Assembly (NCBI GenBank): GCA_041288045.1
Contig: JBGGMM010000212.1
Coordinates: 1-31,088 of the forward strand
Direction of reading: 5' to 3'
Origin: Pseudobdellovibrionaceae bacterium
GTDB taxonomy: Bacteria; Bdellovibrionota; Bdellovibrionia; Bdellovibrionales; Bdellovibrionaceae
DNA length: 31,088 nt
How positions within the stretch are numbered: the first letter of the stretch is position 1; the number at the start of each line of letters is the position of its first letter. Of this stretch, positions 1-30,381 are shown in pieces. The translations under genes and the position numbers were made by a program. The notes below the pieces were generated by a model. The model saw only the letters and a program-made list of their open reading frames with translations, ran no database searches and was not told the origin of the DNA.

Positions 1-633
1 CTTAAAGAACTTCCAGAGATTGAAGAAAAGATTGAATCCGGCGAAATTTCTTTAAGTCATATTAATCTGGCTCAAAAATACTTTCAAAAGACAAATCTCA
101 ATAAAGAAGAGAAATTAGAAATCTTTGAGCAGATTTCTTCTAGATCAGTCAGAGAAGCTGAAAAGATCACGGCCAGTCTTTTAGATCTGCCAATTGAAAA
201 ACCAGATCGCATTCAAGTTGTTGCAAAAGAAACAATTGAACTGAAATTTCAGGCGAATGAAGGATTAAGAGATAAGATAGAAACTCTGAAAGGCTATTTG
301 GCTCATTCTAATCCCAATATGAATTTAGGTGAGCTTTTTGAAAAGCTCTGTGATTTGGGGCTTCGGGAATATGATTCATCCCGAGCGTTCAGAAAACGTC
401 GCGTCATCAATTTGAAATCCAAAGCTCAAGTGAAAAGAGAGGTATTTCTAAGAGCCAAGAATCAGTGTGAGAACTGTCGGTCTACTTATGCTCTGGAAAT
501 AGATCATATTCAGCCCAAAGCTCTGGGTGGATCGGATGAATCCGATAATTTGAGACTTCTTTGCAAGTCTTGTAATCAAAGGGCTGCGATCAACGTATTT
601 GGTGTCAATAAAATGGAACGGTTTTTATCATGA
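1..633 (+). CDS. HNH endonuclease domain protein, 5'-truncated by the window edge
   Basis: Frame 1 is open from base 1 (LKELPEIEEKIESGEISLSHIN...) to TGA at 631-633, so the track start at 298 is internal. The C-terminus has CENC...LEIDHIQPKALGGSDESDNLRLLCKSCN, a zinc-binding HNH signature. Confidence 0.9.
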   Translation, partial: LKELPEIEEKIESGEISLSHINLAQKYFQKTNLNKEEKLEIFEQISSRSVREAEKITASLLDLPIEKPDRIQVVAKETIELKFQANEGLRDKIETLKGYLAHSNPNMNLGELFEKLCDLGLREYDSSRAFRKRRVINLKSKAQVKREVFLRAKNQCENCRSTYALEIDHIQPKALGGSDESDNLRLLCKSCNQRAAINVFGVNKMERFLS

Positions 634-3310: not shown

Positions 3311-3862
3311 CTACAAAGTTTTCTTTAGCGCCGTCAAGCCCTTGGTCACAGAGGCCATGCGAGCCAGATCATGGATTTTTTCAGGGTCTACATTGTGACC
3401 TCTCAGTGCTTTTTCATGAGAAGACACACAAGTCGGACAGCCATTCACCACGCTGACAGCAAAAGCCATCATTTCAAATCGCTCTTTGCCATTCTGTGGT
3501 TTCGCCAAAGACTGCATGCGAAGTCCGGCGCGTTGGTAGCTTTCCAGGGATTCAGGCGAAAGGTAGCCTTTGAACTTGTAATATGTGTTGAGCATTCCCA
3601 TAATCGCGGCTGATTCTTTGGCTTCTTGGATCTGCTCTTGCGAAAGGTCGCGGCTTCGCAGTTCTTCTTCGGCCAAGGCGATCAGTTCCTTGTTTTCCAA
3701 AGCTGAAGCGATGGACAGCAGTCCTAAAAATCGTTCCACTTCATCCAAAGGGCTTTCTTCGAGAATTTTTTTGAGATTCATCATCAGATCGCGAAAGATC
3801 GTTGTTTGGTGATTTGGAAACTGAGCTTCAAAATATTGATCGATTTTTTCTGAGATACTCAT
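3311..3862 (-). CDS. ahpD: Alkyl hydroperoxide reductase AhpD (carboxymuconolactone decarboxylase family)
   Basis: AAIMGMLNTYY and FEMMAFAVSVVNGCPTCVSSHE (CxxC...H); directly downstream of ahpC. Start moved to ATG at 3862 (MSISEK), which follows an AAGGAG RBS. Confidence 0.9.
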   Translation of the reverse strand: MSISEKIDQYFEAQFPNHQTTIFRDLMMNLKKILEESPLDEVERFLGLLSIASALENKELIALAEEELRSRDLSQEQIQEAKESAAIMGMLNTYYKFKGYLSPESLESYQRAGLRMQSLAKPQNGKERFEMMAFAVSVVNGCPTCVSSHEKALRGHNVDPEKIHDLARMASVTKGLTALKKTL

Positions 3863-3879
3863 TTCTTTCTCCTTTGGAA

Positions 3880-3910
3880 ATCCGAGGGCTTCCAATTGAA
3901 AGCCCCGGAT
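3880..3910 (-). other. Intercistronic stem-loop between ahpC and ahpD
   Basis: The minus strand reads ATCCGGGGCTTTC-AATT-GGAAGCCC-T-CGGAT, a GC-rich hairpin with one G-U pair and one bulge, with only a short U run. Confidence 0.55.
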
Positions 3911-3934
3911 GGATGGACGGGTTCCGTTTATAAA

Positions 3935-4498
3935 TTAGCCAAGTGTCGCTTGACCTTTTTCCCAGTTGCAGGGGCAAAGCTCGTCTGTTTGCAAAGCATC
4001 CAGAGTGCGAACGACTTCTTTCACGTTACGACCAACGCTCAAATCATTGACAGACACCCAGCGAACGATTCCTTCAGGGTCAACGATGTAAGTGGCGCGC
4101 AGGGGAGCACCGTTGGCTTTTGAAGCGATTCCCAATTGGTTGGTCAGCTCCTTGTTGTAATCAGCGATCATTGGGAATTTCAGATCCTTCAGATCGTCGT
4201 GATTGTTTCGCCAAGCCAAGTGCACAAATTCAGAATCTGCGCTCAAGCCCAAAAGCTTGGCTTCGCGATTTTGAAAATCTTTGATGTGCTTGTTGAATTC
4301 AGCAATTTCAGTGGGGCAAACGAAAGTAAAATCCAAAGGCCAGAAAAACAGAACAGCCCAGCTGCCTTTGAAATCGCGAGAGCCCATTTTTTGAAATTCT
4401 TTTCCCTTCTCGCGAGAGACACAGGCCATCAGTTCGAATTCAGGAAATTTTTCGCCGATTCCGAGCATTCTCTGGGGAGTGGTTGTTGTTAATTGCAT
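3935..4498 (-). CDS. ahpC: Peroxiredoxin AhpC (typical 2-Cys family, with C-terminal CPC)
   Basis: FFWPLDFTFVCPTEI peroxidatic motif, VGRNVKEVVR, and DELCPCNW. Start ATG at 4498 follows GGAGG. Confidence 0.95.
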   Translation of the reverse strand: MQLTTTTPQRMLGIGEKFPEFELMACVSREKGKEFQKMGSRDFKGSWAVLFFWPLDFTFVCPTEIAEFNKHIKDFQNREAKLLGLSADSEFVHLAWRNNHDDLKDLKFPMIADYNKELTNQLGIASKANGAPLRATYIVDPEGIVRWVSVNDLSVGRNVKEVVRTLDALQTDELCPCNWEKGQATLG

Positions 4499-4500
4499 TT

Positions 4501-4941
4501 TCAATCCTCCTTATTGGATTTGTTGATTTCACCTTTAATTAGCAAATCATAATTTTTGACCTTGAAGTTTCCCGCAAGATCCAAATCGAGCTGCACATTC
4601 TCTTTATGAATATCAAAAAGCCGACCGCTTTTCTCATCCAGAAAATGAGAGTGCTCCTCGAGATTATTGTCATAAATGACTTTGTCAGAATGAGAGAACT
4701 TAAATTCACGAAGAAGCCCAGCGGCAACCAAAGTCTTCAAAGTGTTGTACACCGTAGCAAGACTGATCGTTGCCAAATTCTTCTCAGCCCAAGCATGCAC
4801 TTCTTCTGCGGTGGGGTGATCCGCCTCACACAGCACATACTGACAAATCGAAATCCGCTGCAGAGTCGGTTGCACATTGGCAGCCCGAAGCCGATCCTCG
4901 ATCTCTTGAGTTGTCAGACAAATCCCTTTGCTTTTAGCCAT
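4501..4941 (-). CDS. Fur-family transcriptional regulator, probably PerR-like
   Basis: HPTAEEV, SLATVYNTL, YDNNLEEHSHF; first gene of the ahpCD run. Confidence 0.9.
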   Translation of the reverse strand: MAKSKGICLTTQEIEDRLRAANVQPTLQRISICQYVLCEADHPTAEEVHAWAEKNLATISLATVYNTLKTLVAAGLLREFKFSHSDKVIYDNNLEEHSHFLDEKSGRLFDIHKENVQLDLDLAGNFKVKNYDLLIKGEINKSNKED

Positions 4942-4962
4942 TTCTTTCCCTTTGTTCTAAGA

Positions 4963-4977
4963 TTAGAATAATTCTAA
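4963..4977. promoter_or_regulatory. Per/Fur-type 7-1-7 operator
   Basis: TTAGAAT-A-ATTCTAA is a perfect inverted repeat 21 bp upstream of the Fur-family start codon and resembles the Per box TTATAAT-N-ATTATAA. Confidence 0.8.
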
Positions 4978-4993
4978 AATGAGAGGAAGTCAA
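4965..4993 (-). promoter_or_regulatory. Sigma-70-type promoter for the perR-ahpC-ahpD operon
   Basis: Minus strand TTGACT (4993-4988), 17-nt spacer, TATTCT (4970-4965); the -10 lies inside the 7-1-7 box. Confidence 0.65.
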
Positions 4994-5087
4994 GAGGTAG
5001 AGTGAGTTTTGCCGGGTGCAGGTAAGTGCTTGAAATTATTGGAGGGTGAAAGACGAATATGAAGTCTATAGCCTCAAAATGAGAAGG

Positions 5088-5190
5088 TCTCTCACTGATT
5101 TAGTTCTCCGAAGAGTACCGGTCACATTGAGGCAACTCAATTCAGGAAGTAAATCGTTTTTCACGTGACCGATACCCATCAGTGCCGAGA
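5088..5190. ncRNA. Candidate structured RNA or structured DNA element (unassigned)
   Basis: Nested complementary segments: 5093-5099/5178-5184, 5115-5125/5165-5175, hairpin 5126-5141, and hairpin 5106-5115 (cUUCGg loop on the minus strand). Confidence 0.35.
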
Positions 5191-5236
5191 TTCAACGATC
5201 CCAACTGAAAATTTCTATGAGTTTACATGAATCCAG

Positions 5237-5680
5237 TCAGTGAGCTTCGGTATCAACAAAAACCACATAAGACACCTCACCCGGCAATGCATCTTCAACA
5301 TCCGCACGGACAGAAATCATCTGCGGAAAGTTAGACCAGGGGTTCATCCACCCATTTTCAAGACGCAAGAGAAAATGACCGGAAGGGTACCTTGAATTTG
5401 GGGAAACGAAAACAATTGTTCCTGGTTGCCGAAGCATTTCTGAAATTTTTGACAAATCAAATTCAGCAAAAGTGTAACTCAGTTCTGCCCTGGCCAGAGC
5501 TTGAACAATTTCGCTGCAGTAAAATCCGCGGATCCAGGCGAGCTCTGGAATTTCAAAAAGCTTCAGTGCCTCTTGATAAGACAGTCCACAAAGCGATGCC
5601 ACACAGGCGACAGCACAACCCAGAGGGTGCTCTTGAGGAACGGGCTTCATTTCGAACGAGTGGATAAGCCGCTTGGACAT
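5237..5680 (-). CDS. Stand-alone peptidase C39-like (papain-fold) cysteine peptidase domain protein
   Basis: PVPQEHPLGCAVACVASL matches the C39 Q-x4-5-C-x2-AC pattern; later GHFLL (catalytic His) and WMNPW (usually DP). Confidence 0.65.
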   Translation of the reverse strand: MSKRLIHSFEMKPVPQEHPLGCAVACVASLCGLSYQEALKLFEIPELAWIRGFYCSEIVQALARAELSYTFAEFDLSKISEMLRQPGTIVFVSPNSRYPSGHFLLRLENGWMNPWSNFPQMISVRADVEDALPGEVSYVVFVDTEAH

Positions 5681-5751
5681 GCGGTGAAAAGCTCAACTCG
5701 AAATTTGAAAGGGGTCAATCTGCCATTCGACAGTGCTTTAGATTCCGTAAA

Positions 5752-5768
5752 TTGGAATTTGTTTTGCA
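5752..5768 (+). promoter_or_regulatory. Possible sigma-54 (-24/-12) promoter for the accessory operon
   Basis: TTGGAATTTGTTTTGCA has GG-N10-GC spacing with TTGCA at -12, but two mismatches to TGGCAC; about 43 bp upstream of the ATG at 5811. Confidence 0.4.
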
Positions 5769-5810
5769 CCGAAAGCCTCGCACTTGAGTCCATCCCGAGG
5801 GAGTTATGGA

Positions 5811-8054
5811 ATGGAGAAAAAAATTTACATCAGTGGAATGCATTCGGGGCAAAATCCCTGTGCGGGAGTTGGCATTGCCCGCTCCTTACGCAAAGCTTTC
5901 CCAAATTTGCACCTGGTTGGCGTCGATCATTGGCAAGGAAGCTCAGGATTGCATCACGAAGTGGTGGACGATGTTCTGCTTTTGCCCCAGTGGAAGCAAA
6001 TCGACAGTCTCAGGCACAGCGAGTACTTGGAAACACTTTTAGATTCAGGAAATATTTGGATTTCGGGATTGGATGTGGAAACCCATTGGCTCGCGCAAAA
6101 CTTTGGCACTCATCCCAATCTTTTCGCACCACCGCAAGCCGCCCTTGAAAAGACCGCCAAGCCAGGAGTGCAAGCTTTCTGTCAGTTGGGTTTTCAAGTG
6201 CCAGAATCTATTTCTGCTTTTCTCTCTGATTCAGAAATCCATCACTTTCTACGTCAGAATTCTTGGCAATGCTGGCTCAAGGGGCCTTATCACGAAGCCA
6301 AACGAACCAGTTCATGGGACGGATTTGAAAGATCTCGAGAGGCTATGAAAAAAGAATGGAAAACCTCTCAGCTTTTCGTCCAGAAAAATGTGATCGGCCA
6401 TGAAGAGTCCATTTGTTTTTCGGCCTGTCGGGGAAAGCTCACAGCTTTGATCCACATGCAAAAACGATTGATCACCCCCGAAGGAAAGACCTGGGCCGGT
6501 CGAGTGAACCCGGTGTCTCGTGATTTTTTTGAAGAGTTTGAAGACATCATTGAGCAACTGAAATGGACGGGCGGGGGAGAAATTGAATTTGTTCGCGATT
6601 TAGATGGAAAAAAATGGATCATCGAGTGCAATCCGCGTTTTCCGGCTTGGATTTTTGGTGCGACACTTTCAGGAGTCAATTTGCCGGCAAAAATGATCGC
6701 AGCGGCCTGCAGTCTGCCCTTCGTAGAAGAGATTCAAAAATATCCCTGCTTCACTCGAGTGGTTCACGAAATTCCTGCCAAAGAAGCCGTCGGACTGCCA
6801 ATTCCGCAAGATCCTTCCTTGGTCGCTTGGTCCATCGAGGGAAAAGGAAAAGGGGGAGCTGTTCAAGCGGCGCTCATACCCCAACTGCGACAGCAATCCG
6901 AAACTACGAAAATGGAAGAGAGCGATCAAAAAATCCCGCCTCTCTACACAGAAGAAATCAAAAACCACCTAAAATCCTTTGAGGGTGAAACTCCAACTCG
7001 TATCCACCTGCACGATTGGACTTTCTCGCGCTTTGAAGCTCTGGTGACAGGCATACAAAAAGCTCACTCGCACCCCAAAATCCAAATCGCCTACAGTGTG
7101 AAGACCAGTGCCACCGATGCCCACCTGAAGCACGCCCAGAAGTGTGGGTTTTTCACAGAGTGCATCAGTCAGATGGAAATTCAAAGAGCTCTTCGTACTG
7201 GAGTGCCCCCGAAGGAGATTATTTTAAATGGGCCTGGAAAATTTTGGCCTCTGACAACAGAACCGGTCAAAGATCTGCACATGCTTTTTTGTGACTCGAT
7301 CGAAGAGTTTGATCGAGTGATTGAAATTCCAGATCTGGCTCGGGTGCTGGGATTTCGAATTCAGTTGCCAAAACTTCAATCCAGATTTGGCGTGCCCATC
7401 GATAAAATTGAAAATTTTCAAGCTCTCCTCAAATGTGTTCGACGACTGAAAAATCGCTCAGAGCTTGGATTTCATTTTCACATGCCAAGCTGGGCGATTG
7501 GAATGCAAAGGTGGAAAGAGGCCATGAAATCCCTGCTGACCTGGTGTCAGTCCATTGAGCAGCTGACCGAAGTTCCAATTCGTCATTTGGATTTGGGCGG
7601 CGGTTTTTTCCCTTCCGATTTGGAAAAAATCAATTTTAGCTGGGTTCAAGAAAGCGTGAGATCCGCTCTCCCAGAGGTCAAAGTGATTTATTTTGAACCC
7701 GGGCGTTCGCTCACTCAAGAAGGCGAGGCTCTGGTATCCCGAGTGCTGGATGTCAGAAAAAATAAAGACGAAGAAATTTCAGAAATTGTTGTTGATGCCT
7801 GCATTGCGGAGATGCCGCTCATTCACGCTTACTTTCACCGGGTGTTTTTCCAGTCGCAAACAAAAACAGACGAGAAACAGTTCCAGCCCTTACAAAAGGG
7901 GAAAACTAAAATCTTAGGTCGAATTTGCATGGAAAATGACGTGCTCAGCCCGGGTCTTAACATTCCCGCTTCGGTGCAATTGGGGGATTTGGTGATTTTT
8001 GGTGATGCTGGCGCTTATGAAAGGACAATGAGTTATGATTTTGGACGGGGTTAA
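5811..8054 (+). CDS. Fusion of an N-terminal ATP-grasp ligase (CarB/carboxylate-amine ligase-like) and a C-terminal PLP-dependent fold-type III (Orn/DAP/Arg family) decarboxylase
   Basis: N-half: WLKGPYHEA, FVQKNVIGHE, GGGEIEFV, IIECNPRFPAW. C-half: YSVKT (PLP lysine), LNGPGK, SRFG, HFH, LDLGGGF, FEPGR, GRICMEND, GAY. Start taken as ATG 5811 after GAGGGAG. Confidence 0.85.
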   Translation: MEKKIYISGMHSGQNPCAGVGIARSLRKAFPNLHLVGVDHWQGSSGLHHEVVDDVLLLPQWKQIDSLRHSEYLETLLDSGNIWISGLDVETHWLAQNFGTHPNLFAPPQAALEKTAKPGVQAFCQLGFQVPESISAFLSDSEIHHFLRQNSWQCWLKGPYHEAKRTSSWDGFERSREAMKKEWKTSQLFVQKNVIGHEESICFSACRGKLTALIHMQKRLITPEGKTWAGRVNPVSRDFFEEFEDIIEQLKWTGGGEIEFVRDLDGKKWIIECNPRFPAWIFGATLSGVNLPAKMIAAACSLPFVEEIQKYPCFTRVVHEIPAKEAVGLPIPQDPSLVAWSIEGKGKGGAVQAALIPQLRQQSETTKMEESDQKIPPLYTEEIKNHLKSFEGETPTRIHLHDWTFSRFEALVTGIQKAHSHPKIQIAYSVKTSATDAHLKHAQKCGFFTECISQMEIQRALRTGVPPKEIILNGPGKFWPLTTEPVKDLHMLFCDSIEEFDRVIEIPDLARVLGFRIQLPKLQSRFGVPIDKIENFQALLKCVRRLKNRSELGFHFHMPSWAIGMQRWKEAMKSLLTWCQSIEQLTEVPIRHLDLGGGFFPSDLEKINFSWVQESVRSALPEVKVIYFEPGRSLTQEGEALVSRVLDVRKNKDEEISEIVVDACIAEMPLIHAYFHRVFFQSQTKTDEKQFQPLQKGKTKILGRICMENDVLSPGLNIPASVQLGDLVIFGDAGAYERTMSYDFGRG

Positions 8055-8721
8055 AAAACAAAAACCAAATCGGTTTGAAAATCATTTTCAAGAGTTGATC
8101 GGACAAGAAGAGCATTACTCGCGTTGGATCGAGCACCCCTCATCCTCCATCCTGCATCATGGAAAGTCCTGTTGTGAAGAGGCGAGGCTCTGGTTTCTAT
8201 CTTACGCGCGCTCAATGGAAGGGGGAGTGTCTTCGCAGTACCAAATGCGGCCTCCCACTTGGCTTTCACAAGTGTTCGAATGGGGGCCTTCGGTGTGGCC
8301 CATTTCCTGGTGCCAGGTCTTTCAAGAAAAAACCATTGATTGCGGAGTTTTTGCCGCCTTATCACGAGAAGTTTTTACGGCGCAGGGTTTCGAAGTGCAC
8401 CCAGCCCAAGCTTTGATCTCTTACAATCAAACTTGCACCGATCACTGGAAAGATCTTTGGGAAACTGGATTGAGAAATCTGGAAAGTCATCAATCCGGAG
8501 ATGTTTTTCCATGGGTCGGCGATCAAATCGTCTATCACGAAATCTGCCTGCTTGAAATGCCTGAAGAGAAGGCTCGAATTTTTGATTCTACTTTCGGATA
8601 TTGGTTTGAACCTCAGCAGAGAGTGGGATTTGGAGCTTTGCTCAGCATCCGGAGCGAGTGTCCTCGGATTCTCGAGTGGGGTGACAAAGTTTTGAGTTAT
8701 GGAGAGTGGGTGGATTTATGA
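8035..8721 (+). CDS. Hypothetical protein with a transglutaminase-like Cys-His-Asp triad
   Basis: IDCGVFAALSR, then YHEICLLEM and RIFDSTFG, which parallel the transglutaminase-like core C-x3-A-x-L / H-x-W-x-E / FDPT. Overlaps both neighbouring genes. Confidence 0.55.
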   Translation: MILDGVKKQKPNRFENHFQELIGQEEHYSRWIEHPSSSILHHGKSCCEEARLWFLSYARSMEGGVSSQYQMRPPTWLSQVFEWGPSVWPISWCQVFQEKTIDCGVFAALSREVFTAQGFEVHPAQALISYNQTCTDHWKDLWETGLRNLESHQSGDVFPWVGDQIVYHEICLLEMPEEKARIFDSTFGYWFEPQQRVGFGALLSIRSECPRILEWGDKVLSYGEWVDL

Positions 8722-9677
8722 TGGCAATTGAAGCTGCGGTATTCAAACGGCACTTCAAAGAGTATTTGGAAGGCACCAGCCAAACTCTTTTTTTTAAAAA
8801 TGCTTATTTTGGTCTCTCGTTTTTGGCAATTGCACTTTACTTCAGCGGCGATGTTTTTCTCTATGGGTTTTTGGCCTCTTTGATCGGGTATTTGTATTCG
8901 ATTTTGCACCGCACGCCAAAAGTTCTCAAGCAAACAGGACTCATGACCATCAATGGGTTCTTTTTTGGTATTGCCTTCGCCAGTTTCTTTCAGCCCTCCT
9001 CGTCTTTTTATTTTTGCTTTCTCATGGGGGCTTTGGCCATTCCGTTGATGACAAAGATGTCTCTGGAAATTCTCCAGCACTGGAAATTATCCCCTTTGAT
9101 TGCTCCTTACATTTTGATCATATGGACTCTTTGGCTTGGAGCTTATGGAATTGGCCTTCAGCCTGCGATCAAGTCGTGGCAACAACCACCTTCGATGATT
9201 TTTGATTTTTTGCCGCAGACAGAGCCCCTGGTACAGCTTTTGGCCTCGATGTTTTTTAGTATCAGCCAGATTTTCTTTCTTCAGAATTCTGAATTTGGCA
9301 TGGCGCTTTTGGCGCTTGTGCTTCTTTTCAGTCCTCGTCGTGGACTTTTCTTTTTCATCGGTGCGGCGCTTTCAACTTTGGTTTTTTACGGGATTTCAAA
9401 TGAAGGAGAGTTCGCCTGGCAGCAAGGATTTTTTAGCTGCAGTGCTGGGCTTGTGGGATTAGGGCTTGCCTCCTTGCCAGAAAAATTTGCTTGGCAAAAT
9501 ATTTTGTTATTCTGTGTCTTATCTTTGTTTCTGACTTTGGCGGCAGAACATTTTTTCAGTGGATTTCGACTGCCGATCATGAGCCTTCCCTTTGTCTTGA
9601 CCTTTTGGTTTGCCATGCTCAGCCGAACTCCGCGCCTGAATGTGAGCTGGGCAGTGAATGAAAGTTCTTCGCTATGA
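8718..9677 (+). CDS. Urea transporter (UT/Utp) family membrane channel
   Basis: Very hydrophobic, with the UT internal duplication: GTSQTLFFKNAYFG / SISQIFFLQNSEFG, GLMTINGFFFG / GFFSCSAGLVG, LSPLIAPY / LPIMSLPFV. ATGA overlap with the upstream stop. Confidence 0.8.
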   Translation: MMAIEAAVFKRHFKEYLEGTSQTLFFKNAYFGLSFLAIALYFSGDVFLYGFLASLIGYLYSILHRTPKVLKQTGLMTINGFFFGIAFASFFQPSSSFYFCFLMGALAIPLMTKMSLEILQHWKLSPLIAPYILIIWTLWLGAYGIGLQPAIKSWQQPPSMIFDFLPQTEPLVQLLASMFFSISQIFFLQNSEFGMALLALVLLFSPRRGLFFFIGAALSTLVFYGISNEGEFAWQQGFFSCSAGLVGLGLASLPEKFAWQNILLFCVLSLFLTLAAEHFFSGFRLPIMSLPFVLTFWFAMLSRTPRLNVSWAVNESSSL

Positions 9678-10498
9678 AGAGGTGGCTTTTCATTTTTCTC
9701 ACCGGTTTTTTTGGTGGCCTCACGGTCCTCGCCCAAAGCCTGCCGATTTCAAAAAATGAAATGCGAGTCACTACGGACATCACTCTGGCCTCCAAGTACA
9801 TGCTCGATGGATTTCAGGTGGGTGGCGACCATCCTGTCTGGCAGCTGGCTGGAAAAGTGGACCTGTACGACACAGGATTTGCGTTTATGGCCTGGACCGC
9901 CATTCAAGTGGAAAGATCCAATAAGCAATTTGATGAGCAAGATCTTTTTCTTCTCTATTCCAAAGATTTTTTGCAAGACAAGTCCTATACCCTGAACTTT
10001 CATGGTTACTATGACTACTGGATGTTTCCGAACACCGATCCCGTTGTCGATGAATTCGGGGAAACAGTTTCAACCAGTGTGAAACAGGGAAATAAATTTC
10101 AACTGGGGTTTTCTCTTCCAAAGCTGATTTCTATTGCCGATTCTTTTTTGATTCCGTCCTACAATGCCTACCACTGGCTCTACTTTGCTCAAGATCGGGA
10201 AGACTTGGATCAAAGCGGCACTTATCATGAGCTACTAGCCGAGTATTACAAACCCACGCCGATTTTTATCCCCGGGGCGACTTATCAATATGCTGGCGGG
10301 ACGTCTAGCATCAATTATCATGAAGGGGCTTTCGATGTGGATCCCGGTTGGAGCCATTCGACGGCTTCGATCGTTGCTGGAGTTTACGCGCTGAAATCCA
10401 TTTTCACCATCAGTCTCAATCACCAATGGAGTTTTGAAGAAACCGTCAATCCAGAAAATGAATTCTGGTCCACATTTTCATATATCAAAAAATTCTAG
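9674..10498 (+). CDS. Outer-membrane beta-barrel protein, TorF/Gcw_chp-like putative porin
   Basis: Signal peptide; DITLASKYMLDGFQVGGDHPVWQ...GFAFMAW resembles the TorF-family N-terminus (SDYxFRG...PAxQ...GFYxGxW); aromatic-rich alternating strands; terminal Phe. ATGA overlap with the transporter. Confidence 0.6.
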   Translation: MKRWLFIFLTGFFGGLTVLAQSLPISKNEMRVTTDITLASKYMLDGFQVGGDHPVWQLAGKVDLYDTGFAFMAWTAIQVERSNKQFDEQDLFLLYSKDFLQDKSYTLNFHGYYDYWMFPNTDPVVDEFGETVSTSVKQGNKFQLGFSLPKLISIADSFLIPSYNAYHWLYFAQDREDLDQSGTYHELLAEYYKPTPIFIPGATYQYAGGTSSINYHEGAFDVDPGWSHSTASIVAGVYALKSIFTISLNHQWSFEETVNPENEFWSTFSYIKKF

Positions 10499-10512
10499 GA
10501 AAGGAGTCTCCC

Positions 10513-11310
10513 GTGAAAAAGCTGATTGGATTTTTTTCTCTTCTCATTCTCGTTTCCTGCGTCAAGGCTACCTCCAAAGCACCCGTCGAGGAGCATCTAC
10601 CGGATGTGTCCTCTGGCGAGGAGCGAACAAATGTCCTGATTTATGGTGGGCCTGGATCTTGGAAAGCTGAAATCGAATCTTTAAAAAAAATCCTCCTTGA
10701 GAATCACGCAACTTACGAAGTTCTCACTGCTCAAGAGCTCAATGAAATGTCCCAGGAGGATTATTCAAATTACGATGCCATTTTATTTGCAGGTGGTGAC
10801 GCGCCGACTGTGCGAGCCGCTTTGGACAAAGAAACCAGGATCCAAATACGTGAAGCAGTTCAAAAAATGGGGCTCAGCTATTTGGGATTTTGTGCTGGTG
10901 CTTGGTTGGCAGTGGCACCAAAGCCGGAACCTGGAGAGGATGTGGCTTATGGACTTGGAGTCGTCGAGGGACCTCTGTTGGAACCCAATTTTCTCACTGG
11001 TGAAGGAAAGTTATTTGCTCTTGATCGGGCTCTTTTTGCTGACGGCACAGAAAGAAATCTTCTTTGGTATGGGGGGCCGGTGACTTACCAAAATCCTGGC
11101 ACGGTTGTCGTGAAGTATTCAGACGGAACGCCCGCAATTTCGCAAGTGGAGTCGGGCCAGGGGTTGGTGATCATGTCGGGATTGCATCCGGCAGCGAACA
11201 AATTGATTCTCGGCCAGATCGGAATTTACAACAAAGAGGCCATTGCACCTGAAATCGCTTGGGCTCTGCTTGAAGCCGCCATTGCGAAAAAGAAACTTTC
11301 CACTTTCTGA
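10513..11310 (+). CDS. Lipoprotein with a BPL-N / class I glutamine amidotransferase-like domain (paralog 1)
   Basis: GTG start after AAGGAG; lipobox LVSC; VLIYGGPGS, FAGGD, YLGFCAGAW nucleophile elbow, WYGGP, SGLHPA. Confidence 0.75.
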   Translation: MKKLIGFFSLLILVSCVKATSKAPVEEHLPDVSSGEERTNVLIYGGPGSWKAEIESLKKILLENHATYEVLTAQELNEMSQEDYSNYDAILFAGGDAPTVRAALDKETRIQIREAVQKMGLSYLGFCAGAWLAVAPKPEPGEDVAYGLGVVEGPLLEPNFLTGEGKLFALDRALFADGTERNLLWYGGPVTYQNPGTVVVKYSDGTPAISQVESGQGLVIMSGLHPAANKLILGQIGIYNKEAIAPEIAWALLEAAIAKKKLSTF

Positions 11311-11454
11311 TTTCTAAATTTGAGCTATCGCACATTTTAAGACCAAGGGTCAGTGTTACATAACACCTTGAAATTTCCTTTCTCTGACCTCAATACTAAC
11401 TCGTTCAAAAAATTTAAAGATTGAATTTTCGATTTCAATTCGGAGGTATTCCTG

Positions 11455-12324
11455 ATGAAGAAGAACTCTGTGCTTTTTTCTATTTTTTTGACTGTGCTCG
11501 CGTTGCTGATCCTCAACGCCTGTGCGAATCCAGAAAGTTCGTCGCAAACAGATCCAATTGTTCAAGGCGAACCTCAAAAGTCACTTCCTGACTCGGGAAA
11601 AGAGGATCCCAACAATCCCAAAAGTGACATGGATCAAGATGGACTCATTTATCAGGTTTTGCTTTTTAATGGTGTTGGCACTTCGATTTCGGATTGGAAG
11701 TCTTTAGAGACCATATTGAAATCCATGGCTGTCACTTATCGCTTGGTCAACACGGCGGATCTCAATGCCATGAGTTTAACTTCACTTAAAACTTTCAAAA
11801 TGATTTTGATTCCTGGCGGAAACTCCAATGACATCAACAAAGCGCTGACTCTTTCGACAAAAATCCGAGTCCGACAAGCGGTTCGTGATTATGGAGTGAG
11901 CTACTTAGGACTGTGTGCAGGAGCATTTGCCGCCGTGGGCATTGATTCTCGCTCGAACACAACAGCCTATTATGGATTTGCAGTGGCCCAAGGGGATTAC
12001 CTCAAGCACTGGTATCCCAACGGCAATAGTTCATTGATTGCCGCTGTTCCAAAGGTGAAGTTTGCCGATGGGACGAGTCGATATTTGATGTGGTGGGACG
12101 GACCTTCAACTCCCGAGTGGAGCGGGGGAGTGGTGGCTCGATACCCAGACGGAAAGCCCGCCATTTCTCAGACGAGAACAGGTTTAGGATTTGTGATTGT
12201 CTCAGGCCCGCATCCAGAAGCTCCCGCCTCCTGGCAATATGATTCAGGTCCAGATCCAGACGGCCTCGATCACGATATAGCGAAAAAAATGATTCGAGCC
12301 GCCTTAGACCGAAAGCCGCTTTGA
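11455..12324 (+). CDS. Lipoprotein with a BPL-N / class I glutamine amidotransferase-like domain (paralog 2)
   Basis: GGAGG RBS; lipobox LNAC; IPGGN, YLGLCAGAF, WWDGP, SGPHPEA (complete Cys-His-Glu set); clearly homologous to the preceding gene (FADGT.R.L.W..GP, Y.DG.PAISQ). Confidence 0.78.
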   Translation: MKKNSVLFSIFLTVLALLILNACANPESSSQTDPIVQGEPQKSLPDSGKEDPNNPKSDMDQDGLIYQVLLFNGVGTSISDWKSLETILKSMAVTYRLVNTADLNAMSLTSLKTFKMILIPGGNSNDINKALTLSTKIRVRQAVRDYGVSYLGLCAGAFAAVGIDSRSNTTAYYGFAVAQGDYLKHWYPNGNSSLIAAVPKVKFADGTSRYLMWWDGPSTPEWSGGVVARYPDGKPAISQTRTGLGFVIVSGPHPEAPASWQYDSGPDPDGLDHDIAKKMIRAALDRKPL

Positions 12325-12440
12325 GCTTGGGGTGCCTTTCTCTTTTTCCTTCACCCAGCGCAGCAAACACTCGAAATCACAGTTTTAACAAAAGCCCTTG
12401 CTGCAGCGGGTGAAGGAAAAAGAGAAAGGCACCCTCAAGC
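12325..12440. repeat. Long inverted-repeat element (REP-doublet/MITE-like) filling a convergent intergenic gap
   Basis: 27-bp perfect inverted arms GGGTGCCTTTCTCTTTTTCCTTCACCC at 12330-12356 and 12408-12434, extended inward by GCAGCAA/TTGCTGC and outward by GCTTG/CAAGC. Confidence 0.85.
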
Positions 12441-13208
12441 CCGTTTCTCCTGCAGTTTCCGCACAAGCTTTCTCGTCACCGCTCGCGGAACAAAGCGAAC
12501 CGACGAAGCCATCATCTTATTTACGGTTCCATGAATGGCCACGGGCTTTCGTTGCATCAGAGCTCGGTAACCGTACAACGCGACGTCGCGGCTGCTGGGG
12601 AGGGGAGTGGTTTCGAACAAAGCGACGTTTCCCATGTTGGCCGCTTGTTGGAAACCAGATTTGGTGGGACCGGGGCAGAGAGCTGTGACGCTCACGCCGG
12701 TTCCCTGAAGCTCTTCGTAAAGTCCTTCGCTGAAAGAGAGGACGAAAGCTTTCGTCGCATAATAGACCGACATCAAAGGGCCTGGCTGGAAAGCCGCAGT
12801 AGAAGCGACGTTGAGGATTTTTCCGCTCTTTCTCTGAATCATCGAAGGCAGAAAAAGATGCGTGAGCTCGGTGAGAGCCATGATGTTCACCTGGATCATG
12901 TCTCTTTGTCGTTTCCAATCCGCATCGGCAAAAGCTCCGTAGTCGCCAAAGCCCGCATTGTTGACAAGGATCTCCACTTCGAAGCCTTGAGTTTTTCGAA
13001 ACAGATCCAAAGCTGCTTCTGGTTTCGCAAGATCCATTGGAATCACCTGAGCGCGGATTCTGTATTTCTTCTCGAGCTCTGTCTTCAGTTCATTGAGCTT
13101 CTCACCAGTGCGGGCGACCAGAATCAAATCCCATTCTTTCGCTGCCATGACGTGGGCCAGTTCCCAACCAATGCCGCTGGAAGCTCCTGTGATCAATGCG
13201 TAGGCCAT
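12435..13208 (-). CDS. Short-chain dehydrogenase/reductase (SDR family)
   Basis: TGASSGIG, LVNNAGFG, NVAST, YYATK catalytic motif, CPGPT; AAGGAG RBS. Confidence 0.95.
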   Translation of the reverse strand: MAYALITGASSGIGWELAHVMAAKEWDLILVARTGEKLNELKTELEKKYRIRAQVIPMDLAKPEAALDLFRKTQGFEVEILVNNAGFGDYGAFADADWKRQRDMIQVNIMALTELTHLFLPSMIQRKSGKILNVASTAAFQPGPLMSVYYATKAFVLSFSEGLYEELQGTGVSVTALCPGPTKSGFQQAANMGNVALFETTPLPSSRDVALYGYRALMQRKPVAIHGTVNKMMASSVRFVPRAVTRKLVRKLQEKRA

Positions 13209-13217
13209 ACAATCTCC

Positions 13218-13916
13218 TTAGTAATTTCCATAAAAATGGTAAGTCGTTTTTGATTCTAATTTTTCATAACCCAAAAGCAGCAAACAGATGCCTTCGCGCA
13301 GCTGTTCATCAAAATCCAGCTGAAAGAAAGAAAGCTCCGGATTTGAAATCACTTTCTGCATTTTCAAAGAGGGATTGCAGACCTGATCCAAACCCACGAG
13401 CAAGCTGTAGCATTTCATCAGAAAAGAAAGAGCCCGCTCCTGATCCATCAAAGAAGGCGTGCGCGCTTTTAAAAGCCCAGCGAGGTGAATCAAAAGTGCT
13501 TTCAGTCTCAATTTAAAATCGGTGGCTGCAGTTTCGGAAAGATTTCTCTCTAAAATCAAATGCAAATGACCGAGCAGTTTTGGCAGCTCTGGAAATTCCC
13601 GCAAAGTTCCCAGGAAAAAATCAGCAAATTGACTGGCCGAAAGGGGGGAAGAGATTTCATTCAGTCGAGCCTCGAGCAGCGAAATCCATTTTTCAAATTC
13701 TCTCTCTGTGCAGGCGAGAAAAACTTCTTCTTTGCTTTGAAAATAAAGGTAGAGGGTTCCTTTGGCCAAGCCCGATCGAAGGGCCAGTTGTTGCATGGCG
13801 ATCGAATCAAAATCCTGGCTGCGAAACAGCCGAAGGCCTTGATTGAGAATCAAATCTCTCTTGGCATTTTTGTCTTCGGGCTTTCGGGCCCGCAGTGATG
13901 ACATCTTTTTTGTCAT
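13218..13916 (-). CDS. TetR/AcrR family transcriptional regulator
   Basis: N-terminal HTH IAMQQLALRSGLAKGTLYLYFQSKEEVF; 9 bp upstream of the SDR gene. Confidence 0.93.
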   Translation of the reverse strand: MTKKMSSLRARKPEDKNAKRDLILNQGLRLFRSQDFDSIAMQQLALRSGLAKGTLYLYFQSKEEVFLACTEREFEKWISLLEARLNEISSPLSASQFADFFLGTLREFPELPKLLGHLHLILERNLSETAATDFKLRLKALLIHLAGLLKARTPSLMDQERALSFLMKCYSLLVGLDQVCNPSLKMQKVISNPELSFFQLDFDEQLREGICLLLLGYEKLESKTTYHFYGNY

Positions 13917-13917
13917 A

Positions 13918-13955
13918 AATGACCCATGGTCATTATGGTAGGTGACCCAAAGTCA
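13918..13955. promoter_or_regulatory. Tandem palindromic operators (TGAC-N5-GTCA), probably bound by the adjacent TetR
   Basis: AATGACC-CAT-GGTCATT (13918-13934) and TGAC-CCAAA-GTCA (13943-13955). They flank a possible minus-strand -10 (TACCAT, 13940-13935) with TTGATA (13963-13958) 17 nt upstream. Confidence 0.7.
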
Positions 13956-13977
13956 TTTATCAAAGATTTATCGTGGA

Positions 13978-15045
13978 TCACTTCAGATTCAGAGTGAACT
14001 CTTGAAGCTTCTGGCCGTTGATATCCTTGACCTCGACCAAAGCCTGCTTGTGTTCCCAGTCCAAAACAACTTCGCCAAAATTTTCCTTAGAATAAAGTGA
14101 ACCCATCCGGTGTTTGTTCTTTTCGCTCTCGATGGAGCCTGGGCGATTGATACTGCTGGCTGTGACATCGTAGAGATCGCCATAGCCTTTCAAGCTGAGC
14201 TTGCTGACTTCTGACAAATGGCGATCGCCACTGACAATCAAAAGATTTTTAGCACGGGTCTTTTTAATCAAATCGAAAAGCCTTTTTCGCTCATGTGGAA
14301 AGTTCGCCCACTTTTCAAAGCCATGCTCCTCTGCAATCACTTGGATACTGGAAACCAAAATGCGCAGCTCAGCCGGCTTTCGCAATTCATCTTCGAGCCA
14401 CTTCCATTGCTCACTTCCTAAAATCGTCTTTTTGCGATTTTTGGTCGGCACAAATTTATCCATGGATGATTTGGGTTTCGGATTTGCCTCAAGTTCCGAG
14501 CGAAAAGTGCGAGTGTCGAGCAAAATCACATTCACGCGACGGGGAGCTTCGCCAAACACAAACGAGTGATACACCCCTTTTTGCTGTTTCGAAATGCGAG
14601 TGGCATCGTAAGGAAAGAACTCAAGAAAAGCAGCGCGAGCTTCGTCCAATTTTGGATTCTTGGCGCCGCCATCATTCAGACCAAAATCATGATCATCCCA
14701 AGTGGCCACAATCGGCACCAACGATCTGAATTTCTGAAACTCAGGCACCTTGGCTTGCAGCTTGTACTGCTCAGCAATCGGCTGATCCTCAGATTTGGAG
14801 GCATAGATATTGTCCCCCATGGCAATATAGAGATCCGGCTGATCCGCCAAAAGCGTCGACCAAATGGGCTGCGGATTTTTCTGATGAGCACAAGAGCCAA
14901 AAGTGATTCGGCTCAATGTTTTCTCAGGCGCAACAGGTGCCACCAGAACCTGAGCCAAGGAGGCTTCGGTGCTGGCGGATTGAACTTTGGGACCAGAGCA
15001 AGATGCCAAAAGTCCCAGGAAAAGAAAGAACAATACCGATTTCAT
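13978..15045 (-). CDS. phoD: Alkaline phosphatase D (PhoD-like) family lipoprotein
   Basis: Lipobox LASC; FGSC, MGDNIY, TWDDHDFG, LLDTR, SGDRH metallophosphoesterase motifs. Confidence 0.88.
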   Translation of the reverse strand: MKSVLFFLFLGLLASCSGPKVQSASTEASLAQVLVAPVAPEKTLSRITFGSCAHQKNPQPIWSTLLADQPDLYIAMGDNIYASKSEDQPIAEQYKLQAKVPEFQKFRSLVPIVATWDDHDFGLNDGGAKNPKLDEARAAFLEFFPYDATRISKQQKGVYHSFVFGEAPRRVNVILLDTRTFRSELEANPKPKSSMDKFVPTKNRKKTILGSEQWKWLEDELRKPAELRILVSSIQVIAEEHGFEKWANFPHERKRLFDLIKKTRAKNLLIVSGDRHLSEVSKLSLKGYGDLYDVTASSINRPGSIESEKNKHRMGSLYSKENFGEVVLDWEHKQALVEVKDINGQKLQEFTLNLK

Positions 15046-16214
15046 CAGCCGCGCTCAGTAAGTGGTTTCACTTGGCGCTGAGGAGCACCGATGTACTCGC
15101 TCAAAGGACGGATGATGCGATTGTTCGCTGTCTGTTCCATAATGTGAGCGGACCAACCGGTGGTTCTTGCCATCACAAAAATTGGAGTGAAAAAATCAAT
15201 TTCAAAGCCCATCATGTAATAAGCAGGACCTGCCGGGAAATCCAAATTTGGATAGATTCGCTTTTTTTCCACCATGACTTTTTCCAAAGCTTCATACATT
15301 TGCATCCACTTGGGCTGACCAGTGACCTGAGCCATCACGCCCGCATATTTTTTCATGGTTGGAACTCGGGAGTCGCCTTTTTTGTAAACGCGGTGACCGA
15401 AGCCCATGACCTTGCGTTTCGCAGCCAGGGCATCGAGCATCCACTGTTCCGCTTTCGCCGGATCAGCGATCTCCATCATCATATGCATGACTTGCTCATT
15501 GGCTCCGCCATGCAAAGGGCCCTTCAGAGCGCCAATGCCAGCCACAGTCGCAGAATAAATATCAGATTCAGTCGAAGCCACCACTCGAGAAGTGAAAGTC
15601 GAAGCGTTGAAGCTATGCTCAGCATAGAGAATCAAAGACACATCAAATGCTTTGACCACTTCTTTCTGTGGAACTTTTCCAAAACACATGTGAAAGAAAT
15701 TTTCAGATAGGGACAGGTTTTTATCTGGAGCAATAAAATCCAAACCTTTTTTAAAGCGGTAATCCGCTGCAATCATGGTCGGAATTTTCGCCAGCATGCG
15801 GAGCGCTTTGTCTAAATTGGTCTTTGGAGTCGCATCCCAAACACGCTCATCTTCGCAACCCAAAAAGCTCACACCAGTACGAATCGAATCCATGGGATGG
15901 CATTTTTTAGGAAGACGACGAATGACTTCGAGATTGTCTTTGGAAATATCTCTGTAATTGCGCTCTGTTTTTGTGAATTCGGCCAATTGGCCTTTGTTCG
16001 GAAGCTCGCCATTGTACATCAGGTAAGCGACCTCTTCGAAAGTGCAAAGCTCAGCCAGATCCTGAACAGGGTAACCGCGATAGACCAAAGAGTTGGTGTC
16101 GGCATTCACTTTGGACACAGAAGAAGTATCCATCACAACACCTTCTAGGCCTTTTTTCACATTCACTTTTTCTGGTTCTGGAACATAATCCGGATTGACG
16201 TAATCTTGTGACAT
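15045..16214 (-). CDS. prpC: 2-methylcitrate synthase / citrate synthase
   Basis: KGLEGV, YAEHSFNASTF, GPLHGGANE, MGFGHRVY, PNLDF; clustered with prpB and prpD. Confidence 0.93.
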   Translation of the reverse strand: MSQDYVNPDYVPEPEKVNVKKGLEGVVMDTSSVSKVNADTNSLVYRGYPVQDLAELCTFEEVAYLMYNGELPNKGQLAEFTKTERNYRDISKDNLEVIRRLPKKCHPMDSIRTGVSFLGCEDERVWDATPKTNLDKALRMLAKIPTMIAADYRFKKGLDFIAPDKNLSLSENFFHMCFGKVPQKEVVKAFDVSLILYAEHSFNASTFTSRVVASTESDIYSATVAGIGALKGPLHGGANEQVMHMMMEIADPAKAEQWMLDALAAKRKVMGFGHRVYKKGDSRVPTMKKYAGVMAQVTGQPKWMQMYEALEKVMVEKKRIYPNLDFPAGPAYYMMGFEIDFFTPIFVMARTTGWSAHIMEQTANNRIIRPLSEYIGAPQRQVKPLTERG

Positions 16215-16229
16215 TGAAATCTCCCTCTC

Positions 16230-17129
16230 CTATGACAGTTTAAAATTAAAAATATTCTGATCAAAAGTGCTGTAGCGTTCGTAATCGGTGAGCTCATAGA
16301 GCTCTTTTCGATGCTGCATTTTATCCAAAATGCCTTCTTGGTTGCCCTCTTTCAGGATGTGTTTCAATCCCTCTTCTTGGGCTTTCATCGCCAATCGCAA
16401 AGTGGTTACCGGCCAAATCACGATATTGAAACCAAGGCCCTCAAGCTGTTTGATCGAAAGCAATTTGGATTTTCCAAATTCAGTCATATTCGCCAAAAGC
16501 GGGGCTTTCACAGCTTTGCGAAAAGCCTCGAATTCTTTTTCATCCTGCAAAGCCTCAGTGAAAATCACATCAGCGCCTGCGTCGACATAGGCTTTGGCAC
16601 GCTCGATGGCTTTTTCAAGCCCTTCGCTGGCCCGAGCGTCGGTCCGAGCAATGATCACAAAATTGGGATCCAGCTTTCGCGACATATCCGCCGCTTTGAT
16701 TTTTTGCAGCATATCTCCAGTTGAAACCAAAGATTTTCCATCGAGGTGTCCGCAGCGTTTGGGATTTTCCTGATCTTCCAAATGGCAACCAGAAAGACCA
16801 AGCTCGATGAATTCTTGAATGGTGCGTGCCGCATTCAGAGCGACGCCAAATCCAGTGTCGGCATCAATGATCGAAGGCAGCTTCGTGACCCGCGCAATTT
16901 GACGACCTCGCTGAGAGACTTCGCTCAAAGTTGTCAGTCCCACATCCGGATAGCCGAGATCATTCGAAAGCACGGAGCCCGAAATGTAAACGCCTTCAAA
17001 TCCCAATTTTTCAATCTGCATGGCGGAAAGTGGAGAGAAAGCGCCGGGAAACTTAAGCAGCTTCCCGGATTTCAATCCTTCACGAAATTTTTTTCTTTTA
17101 TCAGCCGGCTGGCTTTCGTTAAAAAGCAT
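16230..17129 (-). CDS. prpB: Methylisocitrate lyase
   Basis: DADTGFG, HLEDQENPKRCGH, IARTDA, LANMTEFGKS. Confidence 0.96.
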   Translation of the reverse strand: MLFNESQPADKRKKFREGLKSGKLLKFPGAFSPLSAMQIEKLGFEGVYISGSVLSNDLGYPDVGLTTLSEVSQRGRQIARVTKLPSIIDADTGFGVALNAARTIQEFIELGLSGCHLEDQENPKRCGHLDGKSLVSTGDMLQKIKAADMSRKLDPNFVIIARTDARASEGLEKAIERAKAYVDAGADVIFTEALQDEKEFEAFRKAVKAPLLANMTEFGKSKLLSIKQLEGLGFNIVIWPVTTLRLAMKAQEEGLKHILKEGNQEGILDKMQHRKELYELTDYERYSTFDQNIFNFKLS

Positions 17130-17132
17130 GAT

Positions 17133-18641: not shown

Positions 18642-18710
18642 GAGAATGTCCTTTGGTTTTGAACCAAAGAAGCTAGCACAGGTCTCAACAAGGGAGGAAA
18701 CCTTTGCAAT

Positions 18711-18730
18711 CGCGTTATGACAATAACGCG
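18711..18730. promoter_or_regulatory. Palindrome between the Omp85 gene and prpD (operator or terminator-like hairpin)
   Basis: CGCGTTAT-GACA-ATAACGCG has perfect 8-bp arms and no U-tract on the minus strand. Confidence 0.45.
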
Positions 18731-18734
18731 GATT

Positions 18735-26562: not shown

Positions 26563-26583
26563 AAGGGCTCCCTTGAGCCCTTT
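26562..26583 (-). terminator. Intrinsic terminator-like hairpin downstream of efp
   Basis: The minus strand reads AAAGGGCTC-AAGG-GAGCCCTTTT. Confidence 0.65.
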
Positions 26584-26655
26584 ATTTTAGAATAAATCCT
26601 AATAAATCATGAGACTTAACGCGGCAAATTAGGACTTCGGTAGGATCTCGTTTTT

Positions 26656-27219: not shown

Positions 27220-27279
27220 AGCCACACCTCATCCGTCGAGTTGAAAGAAAGCTGAAGATGCCCAAGAAGCCAAGAAAGG

Positions 27280-28095: not shown

Positions 28096-28139
28096 ACTTG
28101 ATCTTTGCATTCCTGGCTGCGGCATGCAAGCATTCGGAG

Positions 28140-28664: not shown

Positions 28665-28679
28665 ATCAAAGGGGCCTTC

Positions 28680-29312: not shown

Positions 29313-29324
29313 GGAGACGGATCC

Positions 29325-30371: not shown

Positions 30372-30381
30372 GGGGTTTTCC

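Follow-up and report, generated by a model that had tools for sequence, protein, structure and literature searches.

Introduction

Ligation of an amino acid followed by its decarboxylation has chemical precedent in the enzyme pairs CtaD/CtaF and BtrJ/BtrK (PMC7183216). In closthioamide biosynthesis CtaD, CtaF, CtaG and CtaJ work with the peptidyl carrier proteins (PCPs) CtaE and CtaH (PMC7183216; PMC12865890), and the butirosin side chain is built by BtrI, BtrJ, BtrK and BtrH, which ligate and then decarboxylate while the intermediate is tethered (PMC7183216). In FigC of the rhizoferrin pathway the pocket is enlarged and takes an amino acid acylated on its side chain (PMC7857480), and YxxP has been described as the motif recognized by lasso-type recognition elements (RREs) of RiPPs, peptides made by the ribosome and modified after translation (PMC12710340). 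In this study, we analysed seven open reading frames (ORFs), a C39-like gene and genes A to F, in a stretch of 31,088 nucleotides (the window) of contig JBGGMM010000212.1 of a Bdellovibrionaceae bacterium. Gene A encodes an ATP-grasp ligase fused through a linker arm to a pyridoxal phosphate (PLP) decarboxylase, gene B encodes a transglutaminase-like protein, and a split form of the system was found in which ligase and decarboxylase are separate proteins. We propose that A is a self-templating synthetase with a lysine of its own linker as the carrier: the ligase would acylate this lysine, the PLP domain would decarboxylate the tethered amino acid and B would release the product. The proposal as a whole seems to us about evenly balanced between right and wrong.

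Comparison with described systems

Like closthioamide biosynthesis, the locus brings together an ATP-grasp ligase, a PLP decarboxylase from the Orn/diaminopimelate/Arg family and a transfer enzyme of the cysteine-protease/transglutaminase fold, which would act sequentially on a tethered intermediate. Unlike it, the locus has no PCP gene, its ligase and decarboxylase are fused, a urea-transporter (UT) family channel and a barrel are present, the proposed tether is a lysine amide instead of a phosphopantetheine thioester, and B shows little likeness to CtaG. As to a CtaG/BtrH-type transacylase, B lies nearer to the transglutaminase and NAT folds (CtaG stands at rank 43 of its Foldseek list, E 0.24), and the C39-like protein is papain-fold but 147 residues long. 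The butirosin pathway is similar in ligating and then decarboxylating on a tether, in BtrK (2j66/7ru7), a structural match of the A decarboxylase, and in oxygenase tailoring, which is suggested for the Sphingomonad/Acidobacteria lineage of the fused system; it differs in that here there is no acyl carrier protein (ACP), no aminoglycoside gene and another acyltransferase fold. The BtrJ/BtrK resemblance pointed out in the first-pass annotation of this DNA, which saw in the block a candidate for an undescribed amine- or amide-building system, is borne out, and the genes form an undescribed, co-inherited module that probably builds an amide or amine. ACP or PCP genes were found in none of 80 fused and none of 80 split loci by phmmer with the ACP of the host genome and a motif scan, the fused loci being the best 80 of 439 stretches matching A in species-representative genomes, and the split loci (L110-L118 and L127-L206) being counted as 80 metagenome loci for ACP and RRE and as 89 for B. 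The only PF00550 match in the host genome, one ACP, lies on another contig; the assembly is 83% complete, and counts in the host genome refer to it. Since the locus holds no carrier protein, it is not a member of the thiotemplated closthioamide/butirosin type.

The closest solved decarboxylase is FigC of the rhizoferrin pathway (7kh2), and the signatures K-T, NGPxK, SRFG and C-M are common to it, SbnH and the A decarboxylase. Unlike A, FigA is an NRPS-independent siderophore (NIS) synthetase and not an ATP-grasp enzyme, FigC has no lysine arm, and export is by the major facilitator superfamily as against a UT channel. About 9 residues precede the aligned core in FigC versus 30 in the split enzymes; FigC enters the alignment at residue 29 of the construct, which corresponds to roughly residue 10 of the native protein by the numbering of K63 (PMC7857480). 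A NIS siderophore pathway was rejected because a profile search found no NIS (IucA/IucC) synthetase among the seven genes. Lasso peptide clusters, with their B1 RRE and B2 protease (PMC12710340), are resembled in the discrete RRE and YxxP motif of the split form and in the transglutaminase fold of B. There is, however, no separate precursor or cyclase, the "leader" being part of the decarboxylase in the split form, and RRE and motif are both missing from the fused form. We take the B2 fold to be the counterpart of B. For the fused form an RRE-dependent RiPP cluster was rejected, since there is no RRE (0/80) and no YxxP leader (0/196); clustering of neighbouring ORFs of at least 70 residues gave no recurrent small ORF, and there is no room for one between A and E. 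The first-pass annotation recognized no characterized pathway with this gene set, and the open-access literature searched holds no description of it either: the main text of the RRE-mining paper PMC7470986 gave no hit for ATP-grasp, decarboxylase, urea or M23, although the supplements of PMC7470986 and PMC12710340 may list the RRE of the split form.

The linker lysine and the split form

A lysine stands 23 to 28 residues after the last ATP-grasp strand in all 197 fused homologues compared (168 at +25, 24 at +26), a set of 120 search matches, 76 loci and the protein P0217 that overlap in part, against a background rate of 18% for windows of the same size in the rest of the linker. The linker is otherwise variable, the segment before the lysine is proline-rich, and the arm is flexible, the predicted local distance difference test (pLDDT) falling to 46-55 at residues 341-370 of A. 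In the protein of the window this lysine is K345.

A search for stand-alone ligases with the ligase of A gave 49 matches, mostly fragments by their length and "partial" labels. The nearest stand-alone ligases end before the arm segment, and four distant ones led to the split form, in which a PqqD/RRE protein, an ATP-grasp ligase, a decarboxylase and a UT channel, usually fused to an M23 peptidase, follow in this order, frequently accompanied by a barrel and also a TPR protein. The split decarboxylase carries the arm at its N-terminus: 116 of 120 homologues have the motif YxKPxIxK, the other four starting downstream of it, and the arm lysine follows the motif at +15 in 101 of these, with 14 others at +14 and one at +16. 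The arm lysine pattern recurs in 65 of 67 members of a second split set. In an unsupervised MAFFT alignment the split arm lysine shares the column of K345, where lysine was found in 17/19 fused, 13/15 split and 0/6 LysA-like enzymes. The RRE profile matched in 77 of 80 split loci and in none of 80 fused loci, and found nothing in the host genome; YxxPxIxK occurs in none of 196 fused arms. The RRE and the YxxP motif are thus present only where ligase and arm are separate proteins, and the simplest reading of their loss where the arm is fused to the ligase is that the RRE delivers the arm to the ligase, and that fusion made both unnecessary and the lysine stayed. From these patterns we consider it probable that the arm lysine is the acceptor of the ligase.

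Split and fused ATP-grasp domains score 108-148 bits in seven of eight cases, versus 37 bits for an unrelated ATP-grasp. The two forms have in common a related ATP-grasp, a FigC-type decarboxylase, the aligned arm lysine and a UT-family channel, and the split cassette differs in its separate genes, its RRE, an M23 domain replacing B (B homologues stand in 76/80 fused versus 0/89 split loci), another outer-membrane barrel and the TPR protein. Shared motifs, the arm, ligase similarity and the common affinity to FigC suggest the link between the forms. The strict exclusion of "B or M23" was dropped, since stand-alone M23 genes lie downstream of B in four fused loci. One genome (G122) holds both forms, in loci L111 and L122, and in the split locus L116:145-2256 an F-type BPL_N gene and a TGase_elicitor gene lie downstream of the UT-M23 gene. 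The first-pass annotation had missed that the linker holds an invariant lysine, that there is a split form dependent on an RRE, and that A and B are predicted to form the complex described below.

Domains of A and its predicted complex with B

The ligase domain of A matches PF15632 (E 2e-4) and NF009402 (E 8e-7), both below cut-off, and its residues K117, K157, E259, E272, N274 and R276, which we take to have catalytic roles, are invariant in 36 of 36 homologues. The decarboxylase domain is of fold type III (PF02784, E 7e-20), and the PLP lysine K431, H557, E629 and C706 are invariant among the homologues compared. A diaminopimelate decarboxylase of the LysA type was rejected, as TIGR01048 gave 99.8 bits versus a cut-off of 297.9; the substrate motif is C-M in 19/19 fused enzymes versus C-E in 6/6 LysA-like ones. 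The best solved match is the N-citrylornithine decarboxylase FigC/FslC, although NF041039 reached 83 bits versus a cut-off of 500. The model of A is confident (pLDDT 88, predicted template-modelling score 0.85) except at residues 341-370 and the C-terminal end.

Gene B had no match in the Pfam search, and its fold was compared by structure. VIA gave Z 7.2-7.8 to Factor XIII, TG3 and TG2 (top Z 7.8, root-mean-square deviation 4.1, 159 residues aligned), a middling likeness; most of the top 30 rows belong to the transglutaminase superfamily, and the score against the PF01841 clusters of the Atlas is 0.91. The Cys-His-Asp triad is conserved, with C103 and H168 each in 97 of 98 and D184 in 93 of 98 homologues (Asn in the other five). 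B also keeps H42, C46, C47 and C93 (the cysteines in 90-95 of 98), which could bind a structural metal. In P0217 (944 residues) B is fused behind A, possibly by a frame error, and in P0207, P0162 and P0235 B stands, by eye, before UT-like, radical-SAM-like and GNAT-like domains.

The modelled A-B complex scored 0.70 against 0.01 for the best of three controls, passing a mark that 116 of 157 solved complexes reached, as did 2 of 215 mismatched pairs; these counts hold roughly here since custom alignments were used. The runs agree in at least 79% of contacts, with a partner pLDDT of at least 78, and in the model the helix 45-65 of B packs on A at 519-540 and 567-585. At this interface F536, S574 and W578 of A are shared by 16, 16 and 17, respectively, of the 19 fused enzymes aligned, none of them being the commonest residue in 15 split ones, and W53 of B is kept in 93 of 98 homologues. 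The model supports binding of B to A without showing it. We know of no solved complex of this kind.

A proposed route and the points that weigh against it

From the observed domains with their intact catalytic residues, the invariant and flexible lysine, the linkage of A and B and the lack of a carrier gene, we infer the following route. The ATP-grasp domain would activate a small acid at its side-chain carboxylate and join it to the arm lysine (K345, or perhaps K347) through the epsilon-amine; acidic amino acids, for example Asp or Glu, are the most likely substrates. The arm would then swing to a PLP site of the dimer, where the free alpha-carboxylate would be removed, leaving a beta-alanyl or 4-aminobutyryl-type amine; as in closthioamide biosynthesis, loading and decarboxylation may be repeated. 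B, which the model places on the decarboxylase barrel, would cut the isopeptide bond with its cysteine and pass the unit to water or a small acceptor, so that the lysine is freed. In the lineage of the window, the product would cross the inner membrane through the re-tuned UT channel, meet one or more lipoproteins of the glutamine amidotransferase (GATase) fold, be trimmed and exit through D. In the fullest version of the proposal, iterative loading and decarboxylation would give oligo-beta-alanyl or oligo-GABA-type amides on the lysine of a disordered arm, with neither carrier protein nor separate precursor; release, at an altered channel of the UT type, would fall to the transglutaminase bound to A, and in the split form to an M23 peptidase. 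This version is tentative, and we lean slightly against it.

Several observations weigh against this interpretation. The 197 fused proteins fall in three motif lineages plus outliers, and are not independent. K347 is conserved as well as K345 in the clade of the window, which makes the site of modification ambiguous, and the choice of substrate is a guess. Split decarboxylases score 89-138 bits on the fused profile versus 86-101 for LysA-like enzymes, so that no clear closeness is seen; common ancestry of the fused and split decarboxylases is not proven, and the decarboxylase tree, with three groups, only LysA-like outgroups and P0217 excluded, cannot by its design test whether they are sisters. 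Fused and split UT proteins do not group in the UT tree, where branches are long. Three split loci have no arm lysine, two of them (L117 and L118) reading TSPYEG and one NPYG, and in one more it is displaced; L117 and L118 carry two tandem ATP-grasp genes. Many split loci are short, 38 of 80 having at least 2.6 kb downstream. For B, Foldseek returned nothing at E<=0.001 and the Z score of the fold stays under 8, and the predicted interface of B excludes the lysine arm. In L117:7967-11849 and in L118 the UT protein is also without M23, and in L117 a Sir2 gene comes next.

Alternative explanations

A route like that of FigA and FigC would act on a free substrate: the ATP-grasp domain would acylate the side-chain amine of Lys, Orn or 2,4-diaminobutyrate, the decarboxylase would give an N-acyl-diamine and B would transfer or trim it, while the arm lysine would serve in substrate binding, active-site completion or as a pseudosubstrate latch. 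FigC, the best solved match for fused and split enzymes alike, works on free acylated ornithine (PMC7857480), some split loci have no arm lysine, and a UT channel with a porin would fit small diffusible compounds. However, this explanation gives no account of an RRE and a YxxP motif flanking the lysine exactly when the ligase is separate, nor of a lysine in a disordered segment, and FigC itself has no arm; we regard it as unlikely.

The presence of an RRE and YxxP in the split form would fit a second explanation, in which the arm is an embedded, RiPP-like precursor used once, its lysine being acylated and excised by B and the C39-like protein (by M23 in the split form), and the N-epsilon-acyl-lysine being decarboxylated. 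A peptidase-fold partner (B, C39-like or M23) is always near, the residues after the lysine are small (KGG, KYG, KHG), and an acyl-lysine resembles the substrate of FigC. C39 and M23 peptidases are known for Gly-Gly specificity. Yet such a scheme costs one 750-residue protein per product and requires two cuts in the fused arm, the residues around the lysine vary by clade, and the C39-like gene is present in only 8 of 80 loci, which makes this explanation quite improbable.

Uptake or scavenging is in our view very doubtful. Here D and C would import an amide or amine after trimming by the lipoproteins, A and B would trap or assimilate it, and modification of the arm would be regulatory; the gene order spans the envelope, the lipoproteins are of hydrolase fold and D has a weak TorF likeness. 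Against this stand the 59 of 76 complete fused loci with no nearby UT gene, 53 of which hold a 2OG-Fe(II)-like oxygenase instead, suggesting tailoring of a product, and the non-canonical pore motifs of the UT channel. An ordinary pathway of the closthioamide/butirosin type that borrows the housekeeping fatty-acid ACP in trans is extremely improbable, for although its enzyme families match CtaD/CtaF/CtaJ and the genome encodes one ACP elsewhere, 95% of CtaD-type loci encode a PCP (PMC7183216) against none of 80 fused and 80 split loci, and the lysine and RRE would go unexplained.

A two-gene core with lineage-specific additions

The fusion in gene A is conserved: 980 of 8000 candidate proteins match at E<=1e-10, and among the 120 matches listed 93-100% of A is covered. 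Bdellovibrio and Bdellovibrionales metagenome-assembled genomes hold the best homologues, and the fused loci span about ten phyla, including Bdellovibrionota, Myxococcota, Acidobacteriota, Alpha- and Betaproteobacteria, Methylomirabilota, Actinomycetota and Verrucomicrobiota. In 76 of 80 fused loci B comes after A, and the other four end inside A. The gene neighbourhoods do show A and B together across phyla, and co-occurrence of the system genes is far above chance. The core consists of genes A and B only. Its spread is patchy, with a fused A in 3 of 40 sampled relatives. On a plasmid of Streptomyces zaomyceticus (L126:7998-12431, NZ_CP108525.1), A and B are followed by a fatty-acid desaturase gene, with an IS630 element near; a plasmid search with gene C gave no match.

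The UT channel, the outer-membrane barrel, the C39-like gene and the first BPL_N lipoprotein are lineage additions: a UT gene was found in 17 of 80 fused loci, and the barrel, C39-like and BPL_N genes in 7-8 of 80, all in Bdellovibrionota/Oligoflexia. The 76 complete fused loci carry three types of linker, GK in 8 (the clade of the window), KY in 9 and KHP in 59, and the partner pattern follows them, as three lineages and not as 76 independent cases. All GK- and KY-type loci have a UT gene and none an oxygenase. None of the 59 KHP-type loci has a UT gene nearby; 53 of them carry a Pfam-less protein with the motif HxD...H...R, and 12 also TauD. We take this family, from its motif, to be a 2-oxoglutarate- and Fe(II)-dependent (2OG-Fe(II)) oxygenase. 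Its members (about 240 residues, as in L047:3736-4482 and 53 other fused loci) sometimes occur in two copies, together with TauD.

Among 301 genomes of the phylum, D is present in 6 and the C39-like gene in 5, every case being on the contig of A, which marks both as genuine accessories. Lipoproteins of the BPL_N family are encoded in 32 of the 301, often away from the system, so that E is better seen as a recruited member and F as only loosely attached: an E-type gene adjoins the system in 8 of 80 fused loci, and a true F orthologue stands beside the cluster in only three relatives (G002, G003, L016). One of the three, a close relative, has an additional lysyl-oxidase-like gene (PF01186) at L016:8135-9916, with the C39-like gene on one side of it and A on the other. 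The earlier picture of one system of six to seven genes stands for this lineage, where they are co-inherited and span the envelope, and is too broad as a general one, with only A and B universal.

Accessory proteins

C belongs to the UT family (PF03253, E 1e-34, 120 bits versus a cut-off of 25) but fails the Yut equivalog TIGR03441 (92 bits versus 274.6). The threonines of the two LPxxTxPF motifs are, we presume, pore residues. The first is Ile in C and Ile or Val in 17 of 18 UT proteins of the fused system, versus Thr in 4 of 4 canonical ones, and the second position is Ser in C. With these residues changed, urea is unlikely to be the main solute of C, and a role in nitrogen or urea uptake, as suggested earlier, is unsupported; none of the long ORFs of the window looks urease-like by eye, a genome-wide urease search not having been made. 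The TorF likeness claimed for D is weak: one of four homologues matches PF09694 (Gcw_chp; E 0.009, below cut-off), and D itself gives no match at E<=0.1.

The C39-like protein has no Pfam match and aligns with an Atlas Peptidase_C39 cluster at a TM score of 0.85. Its Cys and His are kept, and the third residue is Asn in 9/9, versus the Asp of the C39 triad. E and F match BPL_N (E 2e-10 and 4e-10), with Cys and His invariant in 13/13 aligned proteins and the Glu present in the F-type and missing from the E-type. A search of PDB sequences with F gave nothing meaningful.

Layout of the locus and its flanks

The seven ORFs (Table 1) and every junction agree with the first-pass annotation: A and B overlap by 20 nt, B/C and C/D by ATGA, and gaps of 14 and 144 nt separate D/E and E/F. 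Profile and fold searches likewise uphold its domain calls for A, B, C, E, F and the divergent C39-like gene, and the paralogy of E and F (36% over 248 residues). Its two proposed boundaries did not survive. The inverted repeat is real, but copies lie on 30 other contigs of the genome (E<0.001), often as adjacent pairs, and the upstream "structured element" (4946-5236) folds no better than shuffled sequences (z -1.2, -2.0), is single-copy and has no Rfam match.

Table 1. Features of the locus in the window
Feature	Coordinates	Strand	Description
C39-like gene	5237..5680	-	147 aa, papain-fold, without signal peptide; conserved Q16, C23, His and Asn; divergent accessory
Gene A	5811..8054	+	747 aa, made up of an ATP-grasp ligase (aa 1-~325), the linker with the lysine arm (~326-390) and a PLP decarboxylase of fold type III (~392-747)
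Flexible arm of A	6786..6920	+	Pro-rich; K345 (codon 6843-6845) and K347; proposed internal carrier
Gene B	8035..8721	+	228 aa, cytoplasmic, transglutaminase/NAT-fold; C103-H168-D184; predicted docking on the A decarboxylase barrel
Gene C	8718..9677	+	319 aa, UT-family inner-membrane channel, pore motifs altered
Gene D	9674..10498	+	274 aa, with signal peptide and C-terminal Phe; probably a beta-barrel of the outer membrane; barrel fold inferred
Gene E	10513..11310	+	265 aa, lipoprotein of the BPL_N family (class I GATase fold); elbow G-F-C-A-G-A and H-P-A, the triad Glu being absent
Gene F	11455..12324	+	289 aa, second BPL_N lipoprotein; Cys-His-Glu complete (H-P-E); loosely attached
Inverted repeat	12330..12434	.	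~37-bp arms; member of a genome-wide REP/MITE-like family, outside the system

Rfam and tRNA scans of the window gave no match, and the promoter/terminator scan gave hits at chance level only, among them a promoter-like site in the E/F gap (11368-11397). PADLOC matched none of the seven system proteins, and thus gave no sign of a known defence system. Just upstream (3311-4941, minus strand) lie what we take by eye to be AhpD-like, AhpC-like and Fur/PerR-like genes, which were not seen as conserved neighbours of the system, and a small HNH endonuclease ORF (298-633, plus strand; PF01844, E 2e-13) stands at the contig start. Downstream (12435-30906) the content is ordinary, with SDR, TetR and PhoD genes first by profile search and then, presumably, as named by eye, methylcitrate-cycle, BamA/TamB-like, efp and ruvCAB genes.

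Significance

Each known system considered here has a defining feature that this locus lacks, and we regard it as a new kind of system. If the system acts on free substrates, or borrows an ACP, its novelty shrinks to a variation on a known pathway. Pathways known to ligate and then decarboxylate depend on free substrates or on a carrier with phosphopantetheine, and the RREs known so far have separate precursor peptides as their targets. A carrier lysine within the synthetase itself would, if true, be a third assembly logic, overlooked by mining rules that look for carrier or precursor genes, and the fused and split forms would record how a RiPP adaptor, RRE and leader motif together, was made redundant by gene fusion. 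The fused form is easily tested, as it involves two soluble proteins and one predicted residue. If the proposal holds, a role would be assigned to hundreds of proteins of one family that now go under the name "diaminopimelate decarboxylase" (439 matching stretches in species-representative genomes), and likewise to a large group of urea-transporter homologues whose solute is probably another one.

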